A stretch of 59,734 nucleotides of DNA, the filler included. It is 5 parts of 5 records of this genome, joined end to end, with 100 filler letters (N's around TTAATTAATTAA, not from the genome) between each part and the next. Parts side by side here need not be neighbours in the genome. Positions count along the whole stretch, not along the records: positions 52,237 to 59,734 come from SRR31156797_8279; 4 more parts are not named here. One strand, written 5' to 3'. The position numbers and the translations under genes are program-made. The notes beneath the pieces were generated by a model. The model saw nothing but the letters and a program-made list of their open reading frames with translations. It did no database searches and was not told where the DNA came from. Positions 8,181-59,734 of this stretch are shown piece after piece. Position 1 is the stretch's first letter. Each line of letters begins with the position of its first letter.

Positions 8181-8280
8181 NNNNNNNNNNNNNNNNNNNN
8201 NNNNNNNNNNNNNNNNNNNNNNNNTTAATTAATTAANNNNNNNNNNNNNNNNNNNNNNNNNNNNNNNNNNNNNNNNNNNN
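8181..8280. other. Artificial contig linker (N44-TTAATTAATTAA-N44)
   Basis: N runs flank a 12-mer with stops in all six frames; the same structure occurs four times. Confidence 0.98.
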
Positions 8281-8815: not shown

Positions 8816-9547
8816 ATGAGTTTCGAAAACAAACAACACCTAAACTTTAGGAGAATAATAAGTGGACTCTTATTAATTCTATTTTTTATTCCAGGAAGAG
8901 CACAGATTCTTGAACCTTCTTTTTCATTTGGATATGGATCCTATGCTATGAGTGACCTGAAAAGGCTTCAAGATAATTTAATTGAACAGATTCCATTTCC
9001 TTTAAAAATAGTTGATAATTTTCCTAGTTATGCTAATTATGAAATGAGCTTAATGGTTCCTCTAGTGAGTAAGTATCATAAGGTAGGTATAGCATTTGGA
9101 GGTATGTCCACAGGTAGTCGGGCTAATGTTAGTGATTATTCAGGATCATATACATTAGATCAAATGGTCAAAGGTACTCGGTTCGGAATTAACTATGAAG
9201 GTTTGTTAAGTGAATTTTCAATATTCCAATTAAACTTTAATACTAATGTGAGTTATCTGCAAACTGAATATCAATTAAAGGAGAAATATTTACTAGGCAA
9301 CCAGATTAATCAGGAAGAAACAATAGAATTAGTTTCTTCAAGCCTTTGCTTTGAACCCAGATTAAAGTTCTCAATGTTAGTTAGGAGACTGGTTTTATCT
9401 GTGCAGGCAGGATATATGTTAGATTCAAATAAACCGTTACATTTAAAGGATGATAAAGACCTTGAGCTACAATTAGATGAAGAATCCATTGGTGCAGATT
9501 TTAGTGGGGTTAGGTTTAATGCAATATTATCGTTTAGAATAGGGTAG
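8816..9547 (+). CDS. Outer-membrane beta-barrel protein, function unknown
   Basis: Signal peptide, alternating amphipathic strands, C-terminal GVRFNAILSFRIG. Confidence 0.6.
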   Translation: MSFENKQHLNFRRIISGLLLILFFIPGRAQILEPSFSFGYGSYAMSDLKRLQDNLIEQIPFPLKIVDNFPSYANYEMSLMVPLVSKYHKVGIAFGGMSTGSRANVSDYSGSYTLDQMVKGTRFGINYEGLLSEFSIFQLNFNTNVSYLQTEYQLKEKYLLGNQINQEETIELVSSSLCFEPRLKFSMLVRRLVLSVQAGYMLDSNKPLHLKDDKDLELQLDEESIGADFSGVRFNAILSFRIG

Positions 9548-32664: not shown

Positions 32665-32764
32665 NNNNNNNNNNNNNNNNNNNNNNNNNNNNNNNNNNNN
32701 NNNNNNNNTTAATTAATTAANNNNNNNNNNNNNNNNNNNNNNNNNNNNNNNNNNNNNNNNNNNN
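32665..32764. other. Artificial contig linker
   Basis: N44-TTAATTAATTAA-N44. Confidence 0.98.
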
Positions 32765-39193: not shown

Positions 39194-39293
39194 NNNNNNN
39201 NNNNNNNNNNNNNNNNNNNNNNNNNNNNNNNNNNNNNTTAATTAATTAANNNNNNNNNNNNNNNNNNNNNNNNNNNNNNNNNNNNNNNNNNNN
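39194..39293. other. Artificial contig linker
   Basis: N44-TTAATTAATTAA-N44. Confidence 0.98.
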
Positions 39294-52136: not shown

Positions 52137-52236
52137 NNNNNNNNNNNNNNNNNNNNNNNNNNNNNNNNNNNNNNNNNNNNTTAATTAATTAANNNNNNNN
52201 NNNNNNNNNNNNNNNNNNNNNNNNNNNNNNNNNNNN
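52137..52236. other. Artificial contig linker
   Basis: N44-TTAATTAATTAA-N44. Confidence 0.98.
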
Positions 52237-52264
52237 CATGGCTCATGGCTCATGGCTCATGGCT
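52237..52264. repeat. Heptamer tandem repeat (CATGGCT)x4 at the contig edge
   Basis: Directly visible; may continue into the gap. Confidence 0.85.
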
Positions 52265-52275
52265 GTTAGAGTGTA

Positions 52276-52303
52276 CGGTTCCCATGCCGAAACATGGGAA
52301 CCG
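52276..52303 (-). terminator. 11-bp perfect hairpin (terminator or REP-like) after the Tm-1-like gene
   Basis: CGGTTCCCATG-ccgaaa-CATGGGAACCG, 6 nt from the stop codon. Confidence 0.55.
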
Positions 52304-52309
52304 AAGATA

Positions 52310-53533
52310 TCAGAAAATCTTTAAGGCAACCTTTGCCACCGCTTGGGAAAACGCCGGGTCCTCCATATTGGCATCCACTTCCATCACAGTGATGTCCGGG
52401 TTGAGCTTCTCGCGAAGCAGCTCATTAAAGACCAAGTCTTCCTCCGGATTAAAGGTAGCATTCCCCGGATAGTCCACCGAAGACCAACCCTTCAGCGGCA
52501 ACATCACGCAAACGGGACCTTGTGCCCGGTTCAGTTTTTCCGCAAATGCCGCCGCCACCTGCTTCAGTTCATCAGGAGAAAGCCGGATCCAGGTGCGGAG
52601 TTTATCCAGGTCATACTTGGGCCGATCCTGGTATTCGGGCTTGTATTTACGTTTGGAAGGGGTCATGTGGTTGACGCTGCAGGTGGAGATTATCTGCGGC
52701 ACACCTGCGTTTCCGGCCGCTTCCATACGATGGGGGCCCGCATCCCGCATAAAACCGAAAAGATGCTCCCCAACCCCTCCCGGGGCCAGATCTATGACCC
52801 CCTGAAACAGACCGGCAGCCATCATCTCTTCCATGGCCCGATCGCTGATACCGGCCGCTGAAAAGCCGGTTACCTGGTAACCCGACCCCTCCAGAATCTT
52901 TCTGACGGAACTGGCACATTGTTCGCACGGCCCCAGCATGGTCATGGCGATGGCCTTGCCCGCTTCGGCCCTGGATGAGGTGACGTCTCCCCGAACCATT
53001 CCGGACAGGGCACAGGCGGCACGATCCATCACGTTCTTCAACAGATCCGTGATACCGCTGATCTCAATGACCGAATGAAACAGGGTAATGTCGCCGGTGC
53101 CGATGTACCGGGTGGAGAGACCGGGGAGCGCCGCCGTGGATGAAATCATGAGTTTGGGAACCCCAAAGGGGAGAGACCGCATGACTTCGGTGGCCATGAG
53201 AGATCCGGTGGATCCCCCCATGGCGATCACCCCGTCCAGTTTACCTTCTGAAAAGAGGTCGCCTGCAATTTTAGACGCCCCTTTGATGGTGATATTGGTA
53301 ATTTTTGACCGTTCCCTGGAGGCGTGAATCTCTTCCAGGCTGCTCCCCCCGGCTTCAGCCACCCGGGCCGGGGTGATATCCGCCGGAGAGTCCCCTTTCC
53401 CCCGCATGGAAATATCCATGAGCAGGGGGGTGACCCCGAGGGACTTAATTTTGTCCCTCAGGTAAAGGGTCTCCACGCCTTTGGTATCCAGGGTGGATAT
53501 AATCAAGACCGCTTTTGGGGTTGAATTCGCCAT
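52310..53533 (-). CDS. Tm-1-like ATP-binding domain protein (UPF0261)
   Basis: TLDTKG.E..YL, GGS.GS.....MR.LPFGVPKLM.S, D.....SV..I.G, A.KLN.A.GP....PL.G.S. Confidence 0.88.
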   Translation of the reverse strand: MANSTPKAVLIISTLDTKGVETLYLRDKIKSLGVTPLLMDISMRGKGDSPADITPARVAEAGGSSLEEIHASRERSKITNITIKGASKIAGDLFSEGKLDGVIAMGGSTGSLMATEVMRSLPFGVPKLMISSTAALPGLSTRYIGTGDITLFHSVIEISGITDLLKNVMDRAACALSGMVRGDVTSSRAEAGKAIAMTMLGPCEQCASSVRKILEGSGYQVTGFSAAGISDRAMEEMMAAGLFQGVIDLAPGGVGEHLFGFMRDAGPHRMEAAGNAGVPQIISTCSVNHMTPSKRKYKPEYQDRPKYDLDKLRTWIRLSPDELKQVAAAFAEKLNRAQGPVCVMLPLKGWSSVDYPGNATFNPEEDLVFNELLREKLNPDITVMEVDANMEDPAFSQAVAKVALKIF

Positions 53534-55188
53534 CAGCCCTGCTCTGCCTCGACCTTCTCCTTGATCATTGTTTTCAATGTTTCTTTGTTGACCTTGCCGG
53601 AATCCCCAACCGCCGGGAATTCGTCCACCACCTCCAGGCGCTCCGGGAGTTTGAACATGGCCAACTGCTTCCCTTTTAGAAATTCCACCATTTCGTCAAA
53701 GGTAAATGTTTCCCCCGATTTGGGAATCACATAAGCGGCACACTTCTCACCCATGGCCCGGTCCGGATAACCGACGATGGCAACGGAAGCCACTTTGGGA
53801 TGCTCGTTGAGCAACCCTTCCACTTCGGCCGGGTAGATATTCTGACCGCCGCGGATGATCATATCCTTGGCACGGCCCATGATCCAGAGACAACCCTGGT
53901 CGAAACAGACAATATCCTCGGTGGTGCACCACCCGTCTTCATCGAACACCGTTGCCGTCAATTCTTCGTCGCGGTAATATCCGGCCGGTGCGTGGGGGCC
54001 CCTTAAATAGAGGATTCCCGGATCACCTTCGGGCACCACATTGCCATCTTCATCCACCAGGCGAACTTTGTTGCCCGGCAGCATTCGTCCCACCGTCCGC
54101 CTGCGAAGCTCCTTGGAATCTTCCACGCTGCAACCGGAGACGGACCCCTTGTCCTGGGTGCCCAGATCGCTGGTAATGCTGGCGCCGAAGGCATCTTCCG
54201 CTTCTTCCGCCACCTGGGGGGAGAGGTACCCGCCGGCGGACCGGATAAACCGCAAGGAACTGAGATCGTATTTCTTAACATCCGCTTCCAGCATGCGCAC
54301 CAGATGGGTGGGCACCACGCCGATGGCCGTTGCTTTCTCCTTTTCAATGAGCGCCAATGCACCTTCAGGGGTAAATTCCTCCAGCATGACGGTCTTTGCC
54401 CCGGCTATGGGCGCAGCAAAATAAGTGAGGGTTCCGGCGGCGCCGCCCGCATGGGGCGCAATGGCCATGGTAATATCGTCTTTGTTGAGATTCCATATGC
54501 CGACCCGGCCCTTGGAAGTGCAGACCCGGGGAGCGGTGGGCCATTCCACCAGTTTGGGGATTCCCGTGGTACCGCTGGTGGTGGTCAAGAGGGCCACGTC
54601 CCATTTGGCATCCAGTCTTCGATCGTTTAAAACCGCTTCATCCACGGGTTTTTTCATGCGGTCTTCCACCATTTGAACCACCGAGTAGGTCCCTTCCGGG
54701 GCGCCTTCGGGAACCTTATCGTCGAAAAGGAAGAAGTACTTCAAGTGAGTAAAGCGTTTCTGAAGATCCTTGTACATGTCGAGATAATTGAATTTGTGGT
54801 AGACCTCCGGGATCACCACGGCCGCGGCCTCGGTTTTCTCCAGCATGTACTCCAGTTCACGCTGCCGCAGGTAGGGATAAACCGTAAGGGAGATGAGTCC
54901 GGCCCGTTCACAGGCCACTCTTGCCAGGAACCCGTAAACACTGTTGGGGGACTGAATGATAACGCGAGCGGATTTGGGGATGCCCATTTCAACCCAGGAT
55001 ATGGCCATGGCATCCACCATTTTCTTTGCCTCTCCCCAGGTCACGCGATATTTTGAATCCACAAGGGCTTCCTGATCGGGCATTTCCTTTGCATTGCGGT
55101 CATAGAAATCATAGAACAGCTCTTCGGTCCAGTGTCCGTCATCCAGGAACTCCTGCACCATTTTTTCTTTATATCGAATCGGTTTCAT
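53533..55188 (-). CDS. AMP-forming acyl/aryl-CoA ligase (ANL superfamily)
   Basis: TTSGTTGIPK P-loop, GRAKDMIIRGGQNIYPAEVE, MGEKCAAYV, KLPERL, SGKVNK. Confidence 0.9.
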   Translation of the reverse strand: MKPIRYKEKMVQEFLDDGHWTEELFYDFYDRNAKEMPDQEALVDSKYRVTWGEAKKMVDAMAISWVEMGIPKSARVIIQSPNSVYGFLARVACERAGLISLTVYPYLRQRELEYMLEKTEAAAVVIPEVYHKFNYLDMYKDLQKRFTHLKYFFLFDDKVPEGAPEGTYSVVQMVEDRMKKPVDEAVLNDRRLDAKWDVALLTTTSGTTGIPKLVEWPTAPRVCTSKGRVGIWNLNKDDITMAIAPHAGGAAGTLTYFAAPIAGAKTVMLEEFTPEGALALIEKEKATAIGVVPTHLVRMLEADVKKYDLSSLRFIRSAGGYLSPQVAEEAEDAFGASITSDLGTQDKGSVSGCSVEDSKELRRRTVGRMLPGNKVRLVDEDGNVVPEGDPGILYLRGPHAPAGYYRDEELTATVFDEDGWCTTEDIVCFDQGCLWIMGRAKDMIIRGGQNIYPAEVEGLLNEHPKVASVAIVGYPDRAMGEKCAAYVIPKSGETFTFDEMVEFLKGKQLAMFKLPERLEVVDEFPAVGDSGKVNKETLKTMIKEKVEAEQG

Positions 55189-55297
55189 GGGGTCGCCTCC
55201 TAGGGGTTGGGTTTTGAGGTGTTTTGTAGGTTTTCAAATCGATCAGGGCCCATGGCTCGTAAGCGATGGGCCCGATTTTGAATTGCCGAAGCGGGCG

Positions 55298-56707
55298 CTA
55301 GAATCCCAACTCCGACCAACGGCCTTTGACCTTTTCGACCATATCCGGATCCAGCTCGATCCGGATCGGTTTTTTCTTCCACTCATAGGGGATGGTGGCA
55401 TCCAGGAGCAGCCTTCCGGTAATTTCCCGGGCATCGATGGGAAGCGACGGATCGAGCGGAGTGGACCGACCCCGTTTGATAACCTGGCTTCGGTTGGGCT
55501 GGAACCTGAAACTCAAAGCGTACATGACCCTGGGGATATCCCACGCATCAATGTCGTCGTCCACCACGATGACGGTCTTAAGTCCGTAGTGGCCCATTTC
55601 CGTTGAAACGGCGGCGGTCAGTACCTGATCGGCATGGCCGGGATATCGGGTTTCCATGGAGATAATGGCCAGGAATCGTCCCGAACCTTCGGGCGGGCAG
55701 TAGACGCTCTTGATGCCCGGAATGTTCATCTCCTCGGTCAACTGCTGCCACAGGGTGGCGCCGTAGGAGAGCGCCATGACCATATGGGTGTCGGTGACGG
55801 CACGGCCCACGGTGGTGGAGTACATGATGGGGTTGTCGCGATGGGTGACGCATTTGATGTCCATGTAGTTTCTGGGATCGGTGCCCACGCCGGAGTAATA
55901 TCCCGTGTACTCGCCGAAGGGGCCTTCTTCCATGAATTTTTCCGCGTCGCATTCCCCTTCCAACACGATTTCCGCATGGGCCGGAACCGGCAGATCCACC
56001 GTTTCGCCCATGACCACTTCACAGGCTTCTCCACGGATGGAGCCGTACACGTCATACTCGGAAATATTGGCCGAAACACGGGCCGCGCCCAGGATAAAGA
56101 GGAGCGGATCGCAACCGATGATGGAGGCACAGGGCATCGGTTTTCCCATCTTCTGGTATTTTTTCAGCATCTGATCCGCATGTTTCCCTTTGATGAACTG
56201 GGTTCCGATCTTGTCCTTGCCCAACAGCTGGCTTCTGTAGGTTCCCAGGTTAACCCATCCGGATTCCGGATCCTTGGTGATAATGTAATGGGCCGTTCCG
56301 ATATAACGCCCGCCGTCTAAAGGAAAGAAATGCGGGACGGGGAATTTGTAAAGATCCACATCGTCGCCCATAATGATATTCTGCTTGCAGGGGGCTTCTT
56401 TTTTGTCCACCATTTTGGGGGGTATGGGGTTATCGCCCATCTTCACCCATCCACGAAGGATTTCCGGAAGGGGGGTATCCTTGGGCATTCCCATAATGAG
56501 GGCCAGTTTCTGAGCGGTGGTACAGGTACTGGTAATCACCGGGGTATCGTAATCTTTGACATTCTCAAAAAGAAGCGCCGGGCCTTGGGCTTCCTCGTTG
56601 AGCTTTGCAATATGGCTCAACTCAAGGTTCCAGTCCACTTCCGCGGTGATTCTCTTAAGCTCGCCCTCTTTTTCCGCCAGTTCAATAAAATCTCTCATAC
56701 TTTTCAT
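55298..56707 (-). CDS. UbiD-family (de)carboxylase, phenylphosphate carboxylase beta subunit (PpcB)-like
   Basis: ELKRITAEVDWNLELSH.AKL.EE..GPALLFE, FPLDGGRYIGT, NLGTYR, EGPFGEYTGYY, KRGRSTPLDP, DATIPYEWK; closely follows the PpcB pattern as recalled. RBS GGAGG. Confidence 0.85.
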   Translation of the reverse strand: MKSMRDFIELAEKEGELKRITAEVDWNLELSHIAKLNEEAQGPALLFENVKDYDTPVITSTCTTAQKLALIMGMPKDTPLPEILRGWVKMGDNPIPPKMVDKKEAPCKQNIIMGDDVDLYKFPVPHFFPLDGGRYIGTAHYIITKDPESGWVNLGTYRSQLLGKDKIGTQFIKGKHADQMLKKYQKMGKPMPCASIIGCDPLLFILGAARVSANISEYDVYGSIRGEACEVVMGETVDLPVPAHAEIVLEGECDAEKFMEEGPFGEYTGYYSGVGTDPRNYMDIKCVTHRDNPIMYSTTVGRAVTDTHMVMALSYGATLWQQLTEEMNIPGIKSVYCPPEGSGRFLAIISMETRYPGHADQVLTAAVSTEMGHYGLKTVIVVDDDIDAWDIPRVMYALSFRFQPNRSQVIKRGRSTPLDPSLPIDAREITGRLLLDATIPYEWKKKPIRIELDPDMVEKVKGRWSELGF

Positions 56708-57087
56708 CAGATATTACCTCCCATAAATGGATATTTTTCGCGTTTTGCCTATCAACCGATCAGTGTCCCATCGACACAAATTCATCGGTATAAAAAACGC
56801 GATCACAAGCATTCTTTTATTGAAACCAAATACCGCTGTTCAATGCCGGCAGGGTGTTCACTGAAACGAACAATCACCCTTAGAGACCGGCATTGCCGCT
56901 AATGAACAACAAACCTCCGGCAATCCGGGAAAAACAGACTATCAATCTAAATAAACTAACAAAAAAATATTTAAAAACCGAAGCACTCGGATCAAATGGC
57001 GGGTTCATTCAAACGAAAACCAGTATCAAGCAAAAGCATCATCCCCCATAAAAAAAATCGTGTCAATTGCATTATTTTTATGGTATT

Positions 57088-57104
57088 CATAACTTTTGAT
57101 TATG
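57088..57104. promoter_or_regulatory. LysR-type box CATAA-N7-TTATG
   Basis: Inverted repeat containing T-N11-A in the UbiD/lysR divergent region; related CATAAAAAAA half-sites near 57047 and 57118. Confidence 0.55.
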
Positions 57105-57163
57105 GATATCTTTGTCCCATAAAAAATATGATCTTTTCCATGTAAAGTGGACGATTTTCAACC

Positions 57164-58126
57164 ATGCTGAACTTCAATCAACTCCGCATCTTTTTCCACG
57201 CAGCCAAAAATCTGAATTTCACCGCAGCCGCCAGGGACTTGTTCATCACCCAGCCGGCCGTAACGGCCCAGATCAAATTGCTGGAAGAATATTGCGAATT
57301 GAAACTCTTCAGAAAAAAAGGCCGCGGCGTCTATTTGACGGATGAGGGGAGAGCACTTTTTGAATACTCAAAGCACGTATTTGACTATGAAAAGGAAATC
57401 GAGTTTGCCATCGAGGAAATGCGGGAATTAAAACGGGGTATTCTTCGACTGGGAACCACCAAGACCTATGCCAGGTACTTCATGCCTTTTCTCCTGACCC
57501 GATTCCATCAGACCTATTCCGACATTCGGATACACCTGGATGAAGGCAGTTCCCAGGCCATGGTTCAAAGTCTGATCGATTTTAAAAACGAAATTGTCAT
57601 CATAGCGAAAATCGTAAGCCACCCGGGCGTACGCTTTCTGCCGCTCAGCCGGGAAGGGATTGTTATCATCGCCCACCCTGAACATCCCCTGGCCGGTAAA
57701 ACCGCCATTTCAGCGGAAGAACTGGCCCGGGAACGAATCATCATGAAAGAAGGGGGCTCCGGAACGCGGCACCTCATTGACAATCTTTTTGCCCGGGCCG
57801 ACAAAACGCCCAACATTGTCATGGAGACCAGCAATACGGAATTCATCAAGATGGAAGTTCAGCGCGGTGAAGGCATCGCTTTCCTGGTGGAATCCGCGGT
57901 TTTGATGGAGCTGGAACAAGGCCTTTTAACATCTCTACCCATCCATGACCGGACGCTCTTTCTGGATGTGAGCATTGCTTATCTGGAAGATCAAAAGCTT
58001 TCCCCCCCTGCCAGGGCTTTCCTTGAAAACCTGACCAACCTGAGCGGTGGCGATATTCCTGCCTTGGGTATCGGAGCACTCATGGCCAAAATCCGGGCGC
58101 ACCGTGATAAACCGACGGCGACATGA
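57164..58126 (+). CDS. LysR-family transcriptional regulator (CysL/CmpR-like)
   Basis: LNFTAAARDLFITQPAVTAQIK.LE, LT.EG, KEGGSGTR. Confidence 0.93.
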   Translation: MLNFNQLRIFFHAAKNLNFTAAARDLFITQPAVTAQIKLLEEYCELKLFRKKGRGVYLTDEGRALFEYSKHVFDYEKEIEFAIEEMRELKRGILRLGTTKTYARYFMPFLLTRFHQTYSDIRIHLDEGSSQAMVQSLIDFKNEIVIIAKIVSHPGVRFLPLSREGIVIIAHPEHPLAGKTAISAEELARERIIMKEGGSGTRHLIDNLFARADKTPNIVMETSNTEFIKMEVQRGEGIAFLVESAVLMELEQGLLTSLPIHDRTLFLDVSIAYLEDQKLSPPARAFLENLTNLSGGDIPALGIGALMAKIRAHRDKPTAT

Positions 58127-59172
58127 CAAACGAAGCCCATAAACCATCCAGGTTTTCCGGGAGGGCAAAGCGGAAGGTCCTTTTGGGGACGGCATGCTTC
58201 CTTTTCCTGTTATTTCTGCTGACCGCCGTATGGGTTCATCATGTGCTTCAGCCCGCGAATACAAAGGGCGAAAACCGGAATTTCATGGTGGATGAAGGCG
58301 CAACGCTGAACCGGGTGGCAGCGGATCTTAAAAAGGCCGATATTATTCGGAGCAGCACCCTGTTTCGCCTGGCAGGCCGACTCAAGGGTTACGACCACCA
58401 CATCAAAACGGGCGAATACCGGCTCAATGGCGCCATGCCCCCCCTGAAAATCCTTGAAGCCCTCAAGGAAGGTCGAATCATTACCCACGCCGTTACAATT
58501 CCCGAGGGCTTTAACCTGAACCAGATTGGCGAGACGATGGAACAAAAGGGCCTTTCAAATAAGGCATCTTTCATTGAAAAGGCCAAGGACAGATCGCTGA
58601 TAGTACAAATGGATCTTTCCGGGGACACCCTGGAAGGGTATCTCTATCCGGATACCTATCGGTTTCGGCGGAACGAAACCGCCGACAAGATCATAGGCGT
58701 AATGGTCAACCGCTTCCGGAACGTGGTCTCACCCTTTCAGACAAGGATAAAAGAGACGGGCATGACCCTTAAGCAGGTCATTACCCTTGCGTCCATTGTG
58801 GAAAAAGAGACGGGTGTCCCTGAAGAAAGACCCATGATCGCACGCGTATTCCTGAACCGTCTTAAAAAAAACATGCGGCTTGAAAGTGATCCCACGGTTA
58901 TCTACGGTATCAGCAACTTTAACGGAAACCTCACAAAAAAGGATTTGAAAACCAAAACACCCTACAACACCTATGTCATCAAGGGTCTTCCGCCCGGTCC
59001 CATCGCAAATCCAGGGTTAGCCTCCATAAAAGCGGTACTGGATCCGGCGGAAGGCAACTATTACTATTTTGTTTCAAAAAATAACGGTACCCATTATTTC
59101 TCTAAAACATTAAAGGAACACAATCGGGCCGTAAGGCGCTTTCAAAAGAACATACGGAAAAAAAGGGGTTGA
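58123..59172 (+). CDS. mltG: Endolytic murein transglycosylase
   Basis: N-terminal TM helix, VTIPEG, LEGYLYPDTY, LASIVEKE, L.SDPTV.YG, YNTY...GLPPGPI.NPG, YYFVS. Confidence 0.95.
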   Translation: MTNEAHKPSRFSGRAKRKVLLGTACFLFLLFLLTAVWVHHVLQPANTKGENRNFMVDEGATLNRVAADLKKADIIRSSTLFRLAGRLKGYDHHIKTGEYRLNGAMPPLKILEALKEGRIITHAVTIPEGFNLNQIGETMEQKGLSNKASFIEKAKDRSLIVQMDLSGDTLEGYLYPDTYRFRRNETADKIIGVMVNRFRNVVSPFQTRIKETGMTLKQVITLASIVEKETGVPEERPMIARVFLNRLKKNMRLESDPTVIYGISNFNGNLTKKDLKTKTPYNTYVIKGLPPGPIANPGLASIKAVLDPAEGNYYYFVSKNNGTHYFSKTLKEHNRAVRRFQKNIRKKRG

Positions 59173-59178
59173 AATTTC

Positions 59179-59210
59179 TTGACATAGCGCAATAATTTCC
59201 AGTATATAAG
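59179..59210 (+). promoter_or_regulatory. Possible sigma70 promoter for the CoA-transferase gene
   Basis: Perfect TTGACA at 59179-59184; the -10 region (TATATAAG) is imperfect. Confidence 0.35.
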
Positions 59211-59236
59211 GGGTTTTCAATATCTAGGAGAATACC

Positions 59237-59734
59237 ATGGATCTTTTAAAGAATCTCAACGTTTTATCCTTGGAGCAAGCGACCGTGCTACCGTACTTGA
59301 CCTACAGGCTTGCCCACGACGGGGTTCAGGTTATTCGATTGGAGCACCCCATTTACGGAGATCCCAACCGGCATATCGGTGAAAATGTCCTGAACGAAGA
59401 ACGGATGAACAGCTACTTTTTGTGCATCAATGCCGGGAAAAAGGCGCTTACGCTGAATTTAGCTGAACCCGAAGGGAGGGACATTTTCCATCGGCTTATT
59501 CAGACACTGAAAATCGATGTATTTACCACCAATCAGCTTCCAAAAAATTATCAAAAACTGGGAATCGACTACGAAACCCTTAAAACCGTGAAGCCGGATA
59601 TCATATGGCTTGGGGTGACCGGATTCGGGCCGGACAGCAACGAAGGCGCTTACGATCCCATTTTGCAGGCCAGAAGCGGATTAATGGAAATGACCGGAGA
59701 AACCGAGGGCGCCCCGCAAGTCCTGGGCATTCCA
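59237..59734 (+). CDS. Family III CoA-transferase (CaiB/BaiF), truncated by the window end; absent from the ORF track
   Basis: RBS AGGAG; manual translation MDLLKNLNVLSLEQATVLPYLTYRLAHDGVQVIRLEHP..GDPNR...INAGKKALTLNL..PEG...LGIDYETL....PDIIW..VTGFGPD...AYDPILQARSGLM..TG. Confidence 0.88.
   Translation, partial: MDLLKNLNVLSLEQATVLPYLTYRLAHDGVQVIRLEHPIYGDPNRHIGENVLNEERMNSYFLCINAGKKALTLNLAEPEGRDIFHRLIQTLKIDVFTTNQLPKNYQKLGIDYETLKTVKPDIIWLGVTGFGPDSNEGAYDPILQARSGLMEMTGETEGAPQVLGIP

Follow-up and report, generated by a model that had tools for sequence, protein, structure and literature searches.

In the Thauera aromatica type of phenol degradation, a phenylphosphate synthase (PpsABC) works together with a phenylphosphate carboxylase (PpcABCD) (PMC6114531). 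The sulfate reducer Desulfatiglans anilini has a 14.4-kb phenol-induced cluster, H567DRAFT_02049-02059, that contains pps-alpha and pps-beta along with ppc-beta (02059) and genes for CoA ligase and reductase (Xie and Muller 2018, PMC6114531). Its authors report no ppcC and describe 02058 as a '2,3-dihydroxybenzoate-AMP ligase' without known function. They also leave unexplained how a sulfate reducer pays the energy cost of the phenol pathway and how one PpcB functions when the other three subunits are lacking, and consider that sulfate and iron reducers may use a different catalytic mechanism (PMC6114531). The adjacent 02057 is listed as an 'Uncharacterized protein, UPF0261 family' of 403 amino acids (aa) (Xie et al. 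2020, PMC7500099 Table S1). In the parts of these two publications consulted here, neither 02057 nor 02058 is given a role. A UPF0261 protein of Novosphingobium aromaticivorans, MarK (Saro_1862), phosphorylates acetovanillone and other phenolics while converting ATP to ADP, and its structure has been solved (PDB 9MPY) (Hall et al. 2025, PMC12624787). Here we analysed a 59,734-nt stretch of DNA (the window), in which three consecutive genes encode a PpcB-type UbiD carboxylase of the prenylated-flavin (prFMN) class, an aryl-acid AMP/CoA ligase and a UPF0261 (Tm-1-like) protein. We suggest, with a probability of roughly 0.6, that this triplet is the contig-truncated core of a strict-anaerobe phenol operon of the D. 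anilini phe type, in which the UPF0261 protein serves as a phosphotransferase partner.

We compared the three products with their D. anilini counterparts. The window UbiD is 79% identical to D. anilini P0024, named phenylphosphate carboxylase subunit beta. The UPF0261 protein is 74% and 73% identical to P0360 and P0368, two D. anilini proteins of 403 aa, which is the length of 02057. The ligase was paired with 02058 (552 aa) by position, annotation and length alone. Gene order agrees as well over the three genes seen in the window: in D. anilini, ppc-beta 02059 is followed by the dihydroxybenzoate-AMP-type ligase 02058, UPF0261 02057 and then ubiX 02056. Both clusters have a single PpcB and no ppcC, and genes resembling those for 4-hydroxybenzoyl-CoA reductase (hcr-like) follow ubiX in relatives of the window. 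The two differ in that the window shows only the first three genes, up to the contig end, and in that its lineage lacks adjacent ppsAB and has a LysR gene directly upstream. In D. anilini, 02057 had a replicate 1 peak area of 2.54e9 on phenol; the corresponding values were 5.3e7 for benzoate, 5.0e7 for aniline and 0 for 4-aminobenzoate, so that phenol exceeded benzoate ~50-fold. In the same replicate the ligase 02058 reached 1.26e10 on phenol versus 6.6e8 on benzoate (~19-fold), and UbiX 02056 was detected on phenol only (PMC7500099 Table S1). Since the triplet matches a described cluster whose members are induced by phenol, the route is already described and its substrate is most likely phenol. 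The initial annotation had proposed an undescribed route acting on a non-phenol aromatic; neither part of that proposal is supported by the comparison. Membership of the triplet in a phenol or 4-hydroxybenzoate-type phe cluster is, in our judgement, very probable.

To place the triplet in a wider context, we scanned species-representative genomes with the window UPF0261 protein and obtained 25 loci, 24 of them Desulfobacterota-type. The order UbiD-ligase-UPF0261 recurs in 18 of the 25 loci, and five more are interrupted, ahead of the ligase or inside it, where a contig ends; at one further locus (L010) the ligase is not present in the 2 kb upstream. Conservation of the triplet, which had been proposed as a check, thus holds. 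We found ubiX directly 3' of UPF0261 in 23/25 loci, and the remaining two end inside UPF0261. Three hcrBCA-like genes then follow in all eight close relatives and in locus L011 (the relatives' genes score 895–928 bits on TIGR03194, just below the cut-off of 994.55). In nine more distant loci, ppsA-like (NF006153, 866–875 bits) and ppsB-like genes lie directly upstream of UbiD. In the lineage of the window, ppsAB do not adjoin the cluster and a LysR gene takes this place.

The contig that bears the triplet (window 52237–59734) terminates 73 nt past the UPF0261 stop codon, within a heptamer repeat, and similarity of the window to all seven close relatives compared ceases at 52307–52314. A tblastn search of the whole window found no ppsAB, ubiX or hcr. 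Because the contig ends so close to UPF0261, neither closure of the operon nor absence of ubiX can be read from the window. The unit had been described as closed by a hairpin and as lacking ubiX. The hairpin is real, but the closure is not, given the contig end and the ubiX gene that follows in relatives; the apparent lack of ubiX is best read as a contig-end artefact. Two of the related loci have unusual structures. One carries a decayed cluster, in which LysR is reduced to a C-terminal fragment and UPF0261 to its last 40 residues; these remnants lie beside an intact ubiX, next to MltG (L025, 6878–8106). In the other, ligase and ubiX are separated by a gene resembling those of low-molecular-weight phosphotyrosine phosphatases, a tandem pair of UPF0261 genes and an HD-domain gene (L014, 1065–4841); phosphatase-like genes in this position are in keeping with phosphoryl chemistry at an aryl phosphate.

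UbiD is the sole gene of its family in the unit, i.e. a 'solo' PpcB. It scores 512.2 bits on TIGR02724 (phenyl_P_beta), above the cut-off of 468.95, and 238.2 bits on TIGR02723 (PpcA, alpha), below the cut-off of 564.6. The pass on TIGR02724 is marginal, as PpcBs of canonical clusters score 637–661 bits. In a quick maximum-likelihood tree of 42 rows, the PpcB-like clade received 96% SH-aLRT support (an approximate likelihood-ratio test) and PpcA stood apart at 100%. The window UbiD falls in a 17-row solo-type clade (support 91), sister to canonical PpcB. We also considered phthaloyl-CoA decarboxylase (PDB 8OZ5, 8PMK), which resembles the unit in combining a UbiD-family enzyme with CoA chemistry in anaerobic aromatic degradation. 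Its structures matched the window UbiD with just 56 bits (E 3.4e-14), the weakest among the matches listed (40 UbiD structures), and it differs in that the relatives' neighbour genes fit 4-hydroxybenzoyl-CoA rather than phthalate. A phthalate or isophthalate pathway, with an aryl-CoA ligase and a UbiD decarboxylase, was therefore dropped on the strength of this score, the relatives' hcr-like genes and the phenol induction. The PpcB assignment made in the initial annotation is thus upheld by family model and phylogeny alike. So is its description of three co-directional genes, which are minus-strand open reading frames of families confirmed by Pfam and NCBIfam.

The ligase stop and the UPF0261 start overlap by one base, 53533, as had been noted. 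The best 25 of the 105 NCBIfam matches of the ligase all fall under their cut-offs, and no substrate-specific equivalog is reached among them. Its nearest solved structures are 2,3-dihydroxybenzoate-AMP (DhbE) and salicylate-AMP ligases. We infer that it acts as a 4-hydroxybenzoate-CoA ligase.

The UPF0261 protein scores 370.9 bits on NF002674 (cut-off 335) and aligns with MarK (PDB 9MPY) over residues 7–403 (phmmer, 4.6e-54) and with tomato Tm-1 (2.8e-48). It had been taken for a member of a family without assigned function in bacteria, a view that MarK (PMC12624787) has made out of date. The two proteins share the two-domain UPF0261 fold family, the D-T-K motif of the ATP site and the glycine at the phenolic oxygen, yet their similarity is distant by alignment. 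MarK comes from an acetovanillone-degrading aerobe and feeds the AcvCDE carboxylase, which its authors set apart from UbiD (PMC12624787), whereas the window protein accompanies UbiD in strict anaerobes. The words 'anaerobic', 'UbiD' and 'phenylphosphate' are absent from the text of the MarK paper (PMC12624787) as accessed. Three phenol-binding residues of MarK, G195, H219 and H304, are reported to be >90% conserved among MarK homologues (PMC12624787). We placed the MarK residues on the window protein by hand through the HMMER alignment (Table 1). Among 130 full-length family cluster representatives, histidine occupies the H219 position in 111 and the H304 position in 93. In 15 orthologues of the window protein, the H219 position holds serine in 13 and histidine in two, and the H304 position holds leucine in all. 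The lysine of D-T-K and a clade-specific histidine, H289, are kept in 15/15. These residues thus place the window protein in the MarK family, with its nucleotide site intact and its aromatic pocket rebuilt, but it should not be classed as a MarK orthologue.

Table 1. Features of the window, with positions along its 59,734 nt, and residues of the UPF0261 protein that align with functional residues of MarK
Feature	Position	Strand	Details
PpcB-type UbiD (prFMN) carboxylase	55298-56707	-	469 aa; Pfam UbiD_N, UbiD, UbiD_C
DhbE/EntE-like aryl-acid AMP/CoA ligase	53533-55188	-	551 aa; Pfam AMP-binding, AMP-binding_C
UPF0261 / Tm-1-like / MarK-family ATP-binding protein	52310-53533	-	407 aa; PF06792 1.4e-52, PF23189 7e-64
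Stem-loop	52276-52303	-	12-bp stem, no U tract; starts 6 nt past UPF0261 stop
CCATGAG heptamer repeat	52237-52262	-	~3.5 copies; contig end
LysR-type box CATAA-N7-TTATG	57088-57104	+	divergent promoter region
LysR-family regulator	57164-58126	+	320 aa; divergent; HTH_1, LysR_substrate
Artificial linkers, non-biological	8181-8280, 32665-32764, 39194-39293, 52137-52236	none	four identical copies
MarK D14-T15-K16 (ATP site)	D16-T17-K18 of UPF0261		kept
MarK G195 (phenolic-oxygen contact)	G201 of UPF0261		kept
MarK H219 (binds phenolic oxygen)	S225 of UPF0261		
MarK H304 (ring stacking)	L309 of UPF0261		
MarK H348 (ketone binding)	V353 of UPF0261		
MarK F283 (pocket wall)	H289 of UPF0261		

We next surveyed the partners of both proteins in a sample of 301 genomes from the same phylum. 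The window UPF0261 protein had 32 matches at ≥50% identity, and a PpcB-type UbiD gene lies within 7 kb of 26 of them. Conversely, UbiD had 38 matches at ≥55% identity (solo PpcB-type), and 32 of these have a UPF0261 gene within 5 kb. The linked pairs are of two kinds. In 23 of the 32, a ligase-sized gap separates the two genes; in the other nine, a divergent UPF0261 (34–42% identical) directly adjoins UbiD, with no ligase. Nine solo-type loci examined read ppsA-ppsB-UbiD-UPF0261, often with a second UPF0261, and then ubiX; ppsAB are present in eight of them.

Seven loci (L054–L060, from G103, G067, G121, G188, G147, G015 and G167) exemplify the second layout, with ppsA-ppsB-UbiD, one or two divergent UPF0261 genes and ubiX, and no DhbE-type ligase. 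The UbiD-adjacent UPF0261 has D-E-R replacing D-T-K in six of them and D-T-R in L058. These residues suggest that the UPF0261 pair may form a heterodimer with one degenerate nucleotide site. Two contigs (G201:C257 and G260:C76) each hold two diverged UbiD-ligase-UPF0261 units ~18 kb apart, with UbiD 72–76% and UPF0261 55–64% identical to those of the window.

UbiD matches of 48–54% identity led to 15 canonical loci with at least two UbiD genes, 14 of them with three and L080 a truncated example. Two were annotated and contain, besides PpcB (637–661 bits) and a PpcD-like phosphatase, a PpcA that exceeds its cut-off (704–736 bits), a small PpcC-like protein, a further UbiD (the third) and ubiX. 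Canonical PpcB-D-A-C clusters thus occur in the same phylum, mostly without UPF0261. The window resembles the T. aromatica system in that its UbiD passes the PpcB model and in the scheme of phosphorylating phenol, carboxylating it and ligating CoA. It differs in that PpcA, PpcC and PpcD are not on the window contig, as had been claimed for the unit. Nor did PpcA, PpcC or PpcD exceed their cut-offs in two near-complete close-relative genomes, G001 and G002 (best scores: PpcA 242 versus 564.6, PpcD 159 versus 282, PpcC no match).

All catalytic steps in the organism, and the role of UPF0261 in its entirety, are inferred as follows. Phenol would be phosphorylated to phenylphosphate, which the solo PpcB-type prFMN enzyme would carboxylate with CO2 at the position para to the oxygen, forming 4-hydroxybenzoate. 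The DhbE-like ligase would turn this product into 4-hydroxybenzoyl-CoA and so pull the carboxylation. UbiX would supply the cofactor and the hcr-like gene products would remove the hydroxyl group to yield benzoyl-CoA, if these genes lie downstream as they do in relatives. The LysR regulator would control the divergent promoter. The UPF0261 protein would be a MarK-family phosphotransferase that depends on ATP/ADP and works with the solo PpcB. Most likely it would bind or hand over phosphorylated phenol, doing the job of the PpcD phosphatase with PpcA and PpcC. At the level of the operon, the scheme (carboxylation of phenol via a phosphorylated intermediate and ligation to 4-hydroxybenzoyl-CoA) is well supported by the gene families and synteny found and by the phenol induction demonstrated for the D. 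anilini orthologues. For the Tm-1-like protein, a role as ATP-dependent activator or phosphorylating partner had been suggested earlier. MarK, itself a UPF0261 protein, is an ATP-to-ADP aromatic kinase, which now makes phosphoryl transfer or a partner function plausible, but the non-phenol target of that suggestion falls away. The specific role as phosphotransferase partner of the solo PpcB, handling phosphorylated phenol, is put forward tentatively.

Several observations weigh against this scheme. The window UPF0261 protein lacks both phenol-site histidines of MarK (S225 and L309), so its substrate or chemistry may differ. The UbiD tree was a quick search with SH-aLRT support only and no AbcA reference, and in it the UPF0261-linked UbiDs of loci L062 and L057 adjoin the canonical PpcB clade. 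The absence of PpcC is only weakly shown, because the control genomes gave no match to the PpcC model either. UPF0261 and PpcD/A/C do not strictly exclude each other, since three of the 15 canonical loci have UPF0261 in the examined flank (L075 inside the operon, L079 and L080 beside ppsAB). In D. anilini, according to the consulted parts of the report, phenylphosphate carboxylase activity was not demonstrable in extracts, and a second, unlinked UbiD ('ppc-alpha' of the authors) is also phenol-induced (PMC6114531).

One could expect the UPF0261 protein to be a phenol kinase in its own right, which would form ADP and replace or supplement the AMP-forming PpsAB, saving one ATP equivalent. MarK provides the precedent, with ATP converted to ADP and a phenolic hydroxyl as acceptor (PMC12624787), and the D-T-K motif and G201 are kept. 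In the lineage of the window, ppsAB do not adjoin the cluster, and the complete 8.2-Mb genome G001 has just a 45%-identity PpsA-type gene elsewhere. A cheaper kinase would also bear on the energy cost that the D. anilini authors left unexplained, and the extract assay in that species did not tell which enzyme formed phenylphosphate (PMC6114531). However, ppsAB share an operon with UPF0261 in the nine distant loci of the genome scan and in 8/9 solo-type loci of the survey. The kinase step is already covered, because most solo-PpcB clusters carry ppsAB alongside UPF0261. G002 retains orthologous ppsA (83%) and ppsB (79%) elsewhere in the genome. Given these PpsAB-like genes elsewhere in G001 and G002, UPF0261 need not have taken over from phenylphosphate synthase. 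The loss of both phenol-site histidines of MarK also speaks against this reading. We therefore consider a stand-alone kinase unlikely, though the best of the alternatives. A role of UPF0261 at the carboxylase is favoured because the gene co-occurs with ppsAB and is near-absent from PpcD/A/C clusters, and we regard the partner role as more likely than that of a second phenol kinase.

UPF0261 paralogues (35–44% identical) adjoin Pps-like dikinase genes in both close-relative genomes (L043, G001:C1:6877323-6880690; L045, G002:C2:1641400-1649119). L045 also holds a receiver-domain gene resembling a 178-aa open reading frame that several phe clusters have between UbiD and ligase. Neither UbiD nor ubiX was matched in these ~3.5-kb paralogue loci.

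The unit might instead act on another aromatic (a different phenolic, aniline or hydroquinone). The two diverged cluster copies in G201 and G260 suggest substrate diversification, D. anilini 02059 is moderately abundant on aniline too (PMC7500099), and the ligase attains no curated substrate-specific family among the best 25 of its 105 NCBIfam matches. Such a substrate is nonetheless improbable in view of the ~50-fold (UPF0261) and ~19-fold (ligase) increases of the D. anilini orthologues on phenol versus benzoate in replicate 1 (PMC7500099), the hcr-like genes that follow in 8/8 close relatives, and a UbiD score above the PpcB cut-off. Less probable still is a helper function in which UPF0261 would not act on the aromatic but would assist prFMN maturation or insertion, or supply the prenyl donor to UbiX: almost all solo-type clusters do have UPF0261 placed between UbiD and ubiX, its aromatic pocket is remodelled relative to MarK, and activation of UbiD enzymes by an accessory protein has a precedent in the LpdD chaperone (PMC10865409), but MarK operates in an operon without UbiD or UbiX (PMC12624787, consulted parts), the G001 and G002 paralogues adjoin Pps-like dikinases, with no UbiD or ubiX match in the ~3.5-kb loci, 12 of the 15 canonical Ppc clusters show no flanking UPF0261 despite having ubiX, and in L079 and L080 UPF0261 adjoins ppsAB rather than ubiX.

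Elements flanking the triplet were compared across relatives. The hairpin behind UPF0261 has a folding free energy of –28.8 kcal/mol (z –4.73), and none of 200 shuffles folds equally well. A terminator and promoter scan returned sites no more numerous than in shuffles and did not call this hairpin, which has no U tract. Relative L005 has a different hairpin at the equivalent place, ahead of ubiX. In L001 (~9290–9340) and L005 (~9300–9360), CATCAAT/CAACAAT heptamer repeats occupy the UPF0261-ubiX spacer, and ubiX follows. The LysR gene keeps its position in 8/8 close relatives at 85–93% identity; more distant clusters are also flanked by LysR genes, at lower identity. A CATAA-N7-TTATG box upstream of the divergent LysR gene, pointed out in the initial annotation, is indeed present and occurs once in the window versus 0.13 expected (at least one match in 13/100 shuffles). 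Its core, ATAA-N7-TTAT, is invariant in all eight aligned intergenic regions (the window and seven close relatives) and sits in a conserved block that runs through a TTGACAC element. A ~230-nt segment of the LysR-UbiD intergenic region (~56730–56960) is shared with L003, L004, L005 and L024 and absent in L001, L002 and L020. It contains conserved blocks that include the inverted repeat GTTCGTTTCAGTGAAC and the pair CGCGTTTT...AAAACGCG. An Rfam scan of 52237–57300 gave zero matches at E values up to 1.

The window itself is composite. Its contigs number at least five and are connected by copies of one 100-nt linker (44 N, TTAATTAATTAA, 44 N), and the G+C content of the pieces between linkers is 34–38% over positions 1–39193 versus 47–52% over 39294–59734. 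The linkers and the G+C differences between pieces indicate that the window was made by stringing together independent contigs of a single assembly or bin. The low-G+C pieces encode a hybrid two-component regulator (Reg_prop, Y_Y_Y and AraC domains) and a rhamnosidase, domain types that we take to be typical of Bacteroidota. The bin may be a mixture, and being neighbours across a linker has no meaning. On another contig (45607–51725), a block of methyltransferase and glycosyltransferase genes includes one for a 1240-aa protein with three glycosyltransferase-1 stretches and, after it, one for a 799-aa protein without family match.

We found no literature that links UPF0261, or Tm-1 with UbiD and phenol, to anaerobic phenol carboxylation, in a search that covered sources other than subscription journals and supplements. 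The cluster itself is ordinary: a further copy, from an uncultured sulfate reducer, of a published phenol pathway, incomplete by assembly. The UPF0261 gene is what deserves attention, being phenol-induced in D. anilini, accompanying a solo PpcB in two operon layouts and belonging to a family that includes an aromatic kinase. A more specific version of the partner role, which we consider rather doubtful, is that UPF0261 is the missing subunit of the solo PpcB carboxylase and moves the phosphoryl group of phenylphosphate to ADP while the coupled ligase pulls the carboxylation. If true, this transfer would recover one ATP equivalent spent on phenol activation. It would then answer the puzzle of how sulfate reducers pay for the pathway, and the phenol-linked UPF0261 clade would gain a second kind of function.

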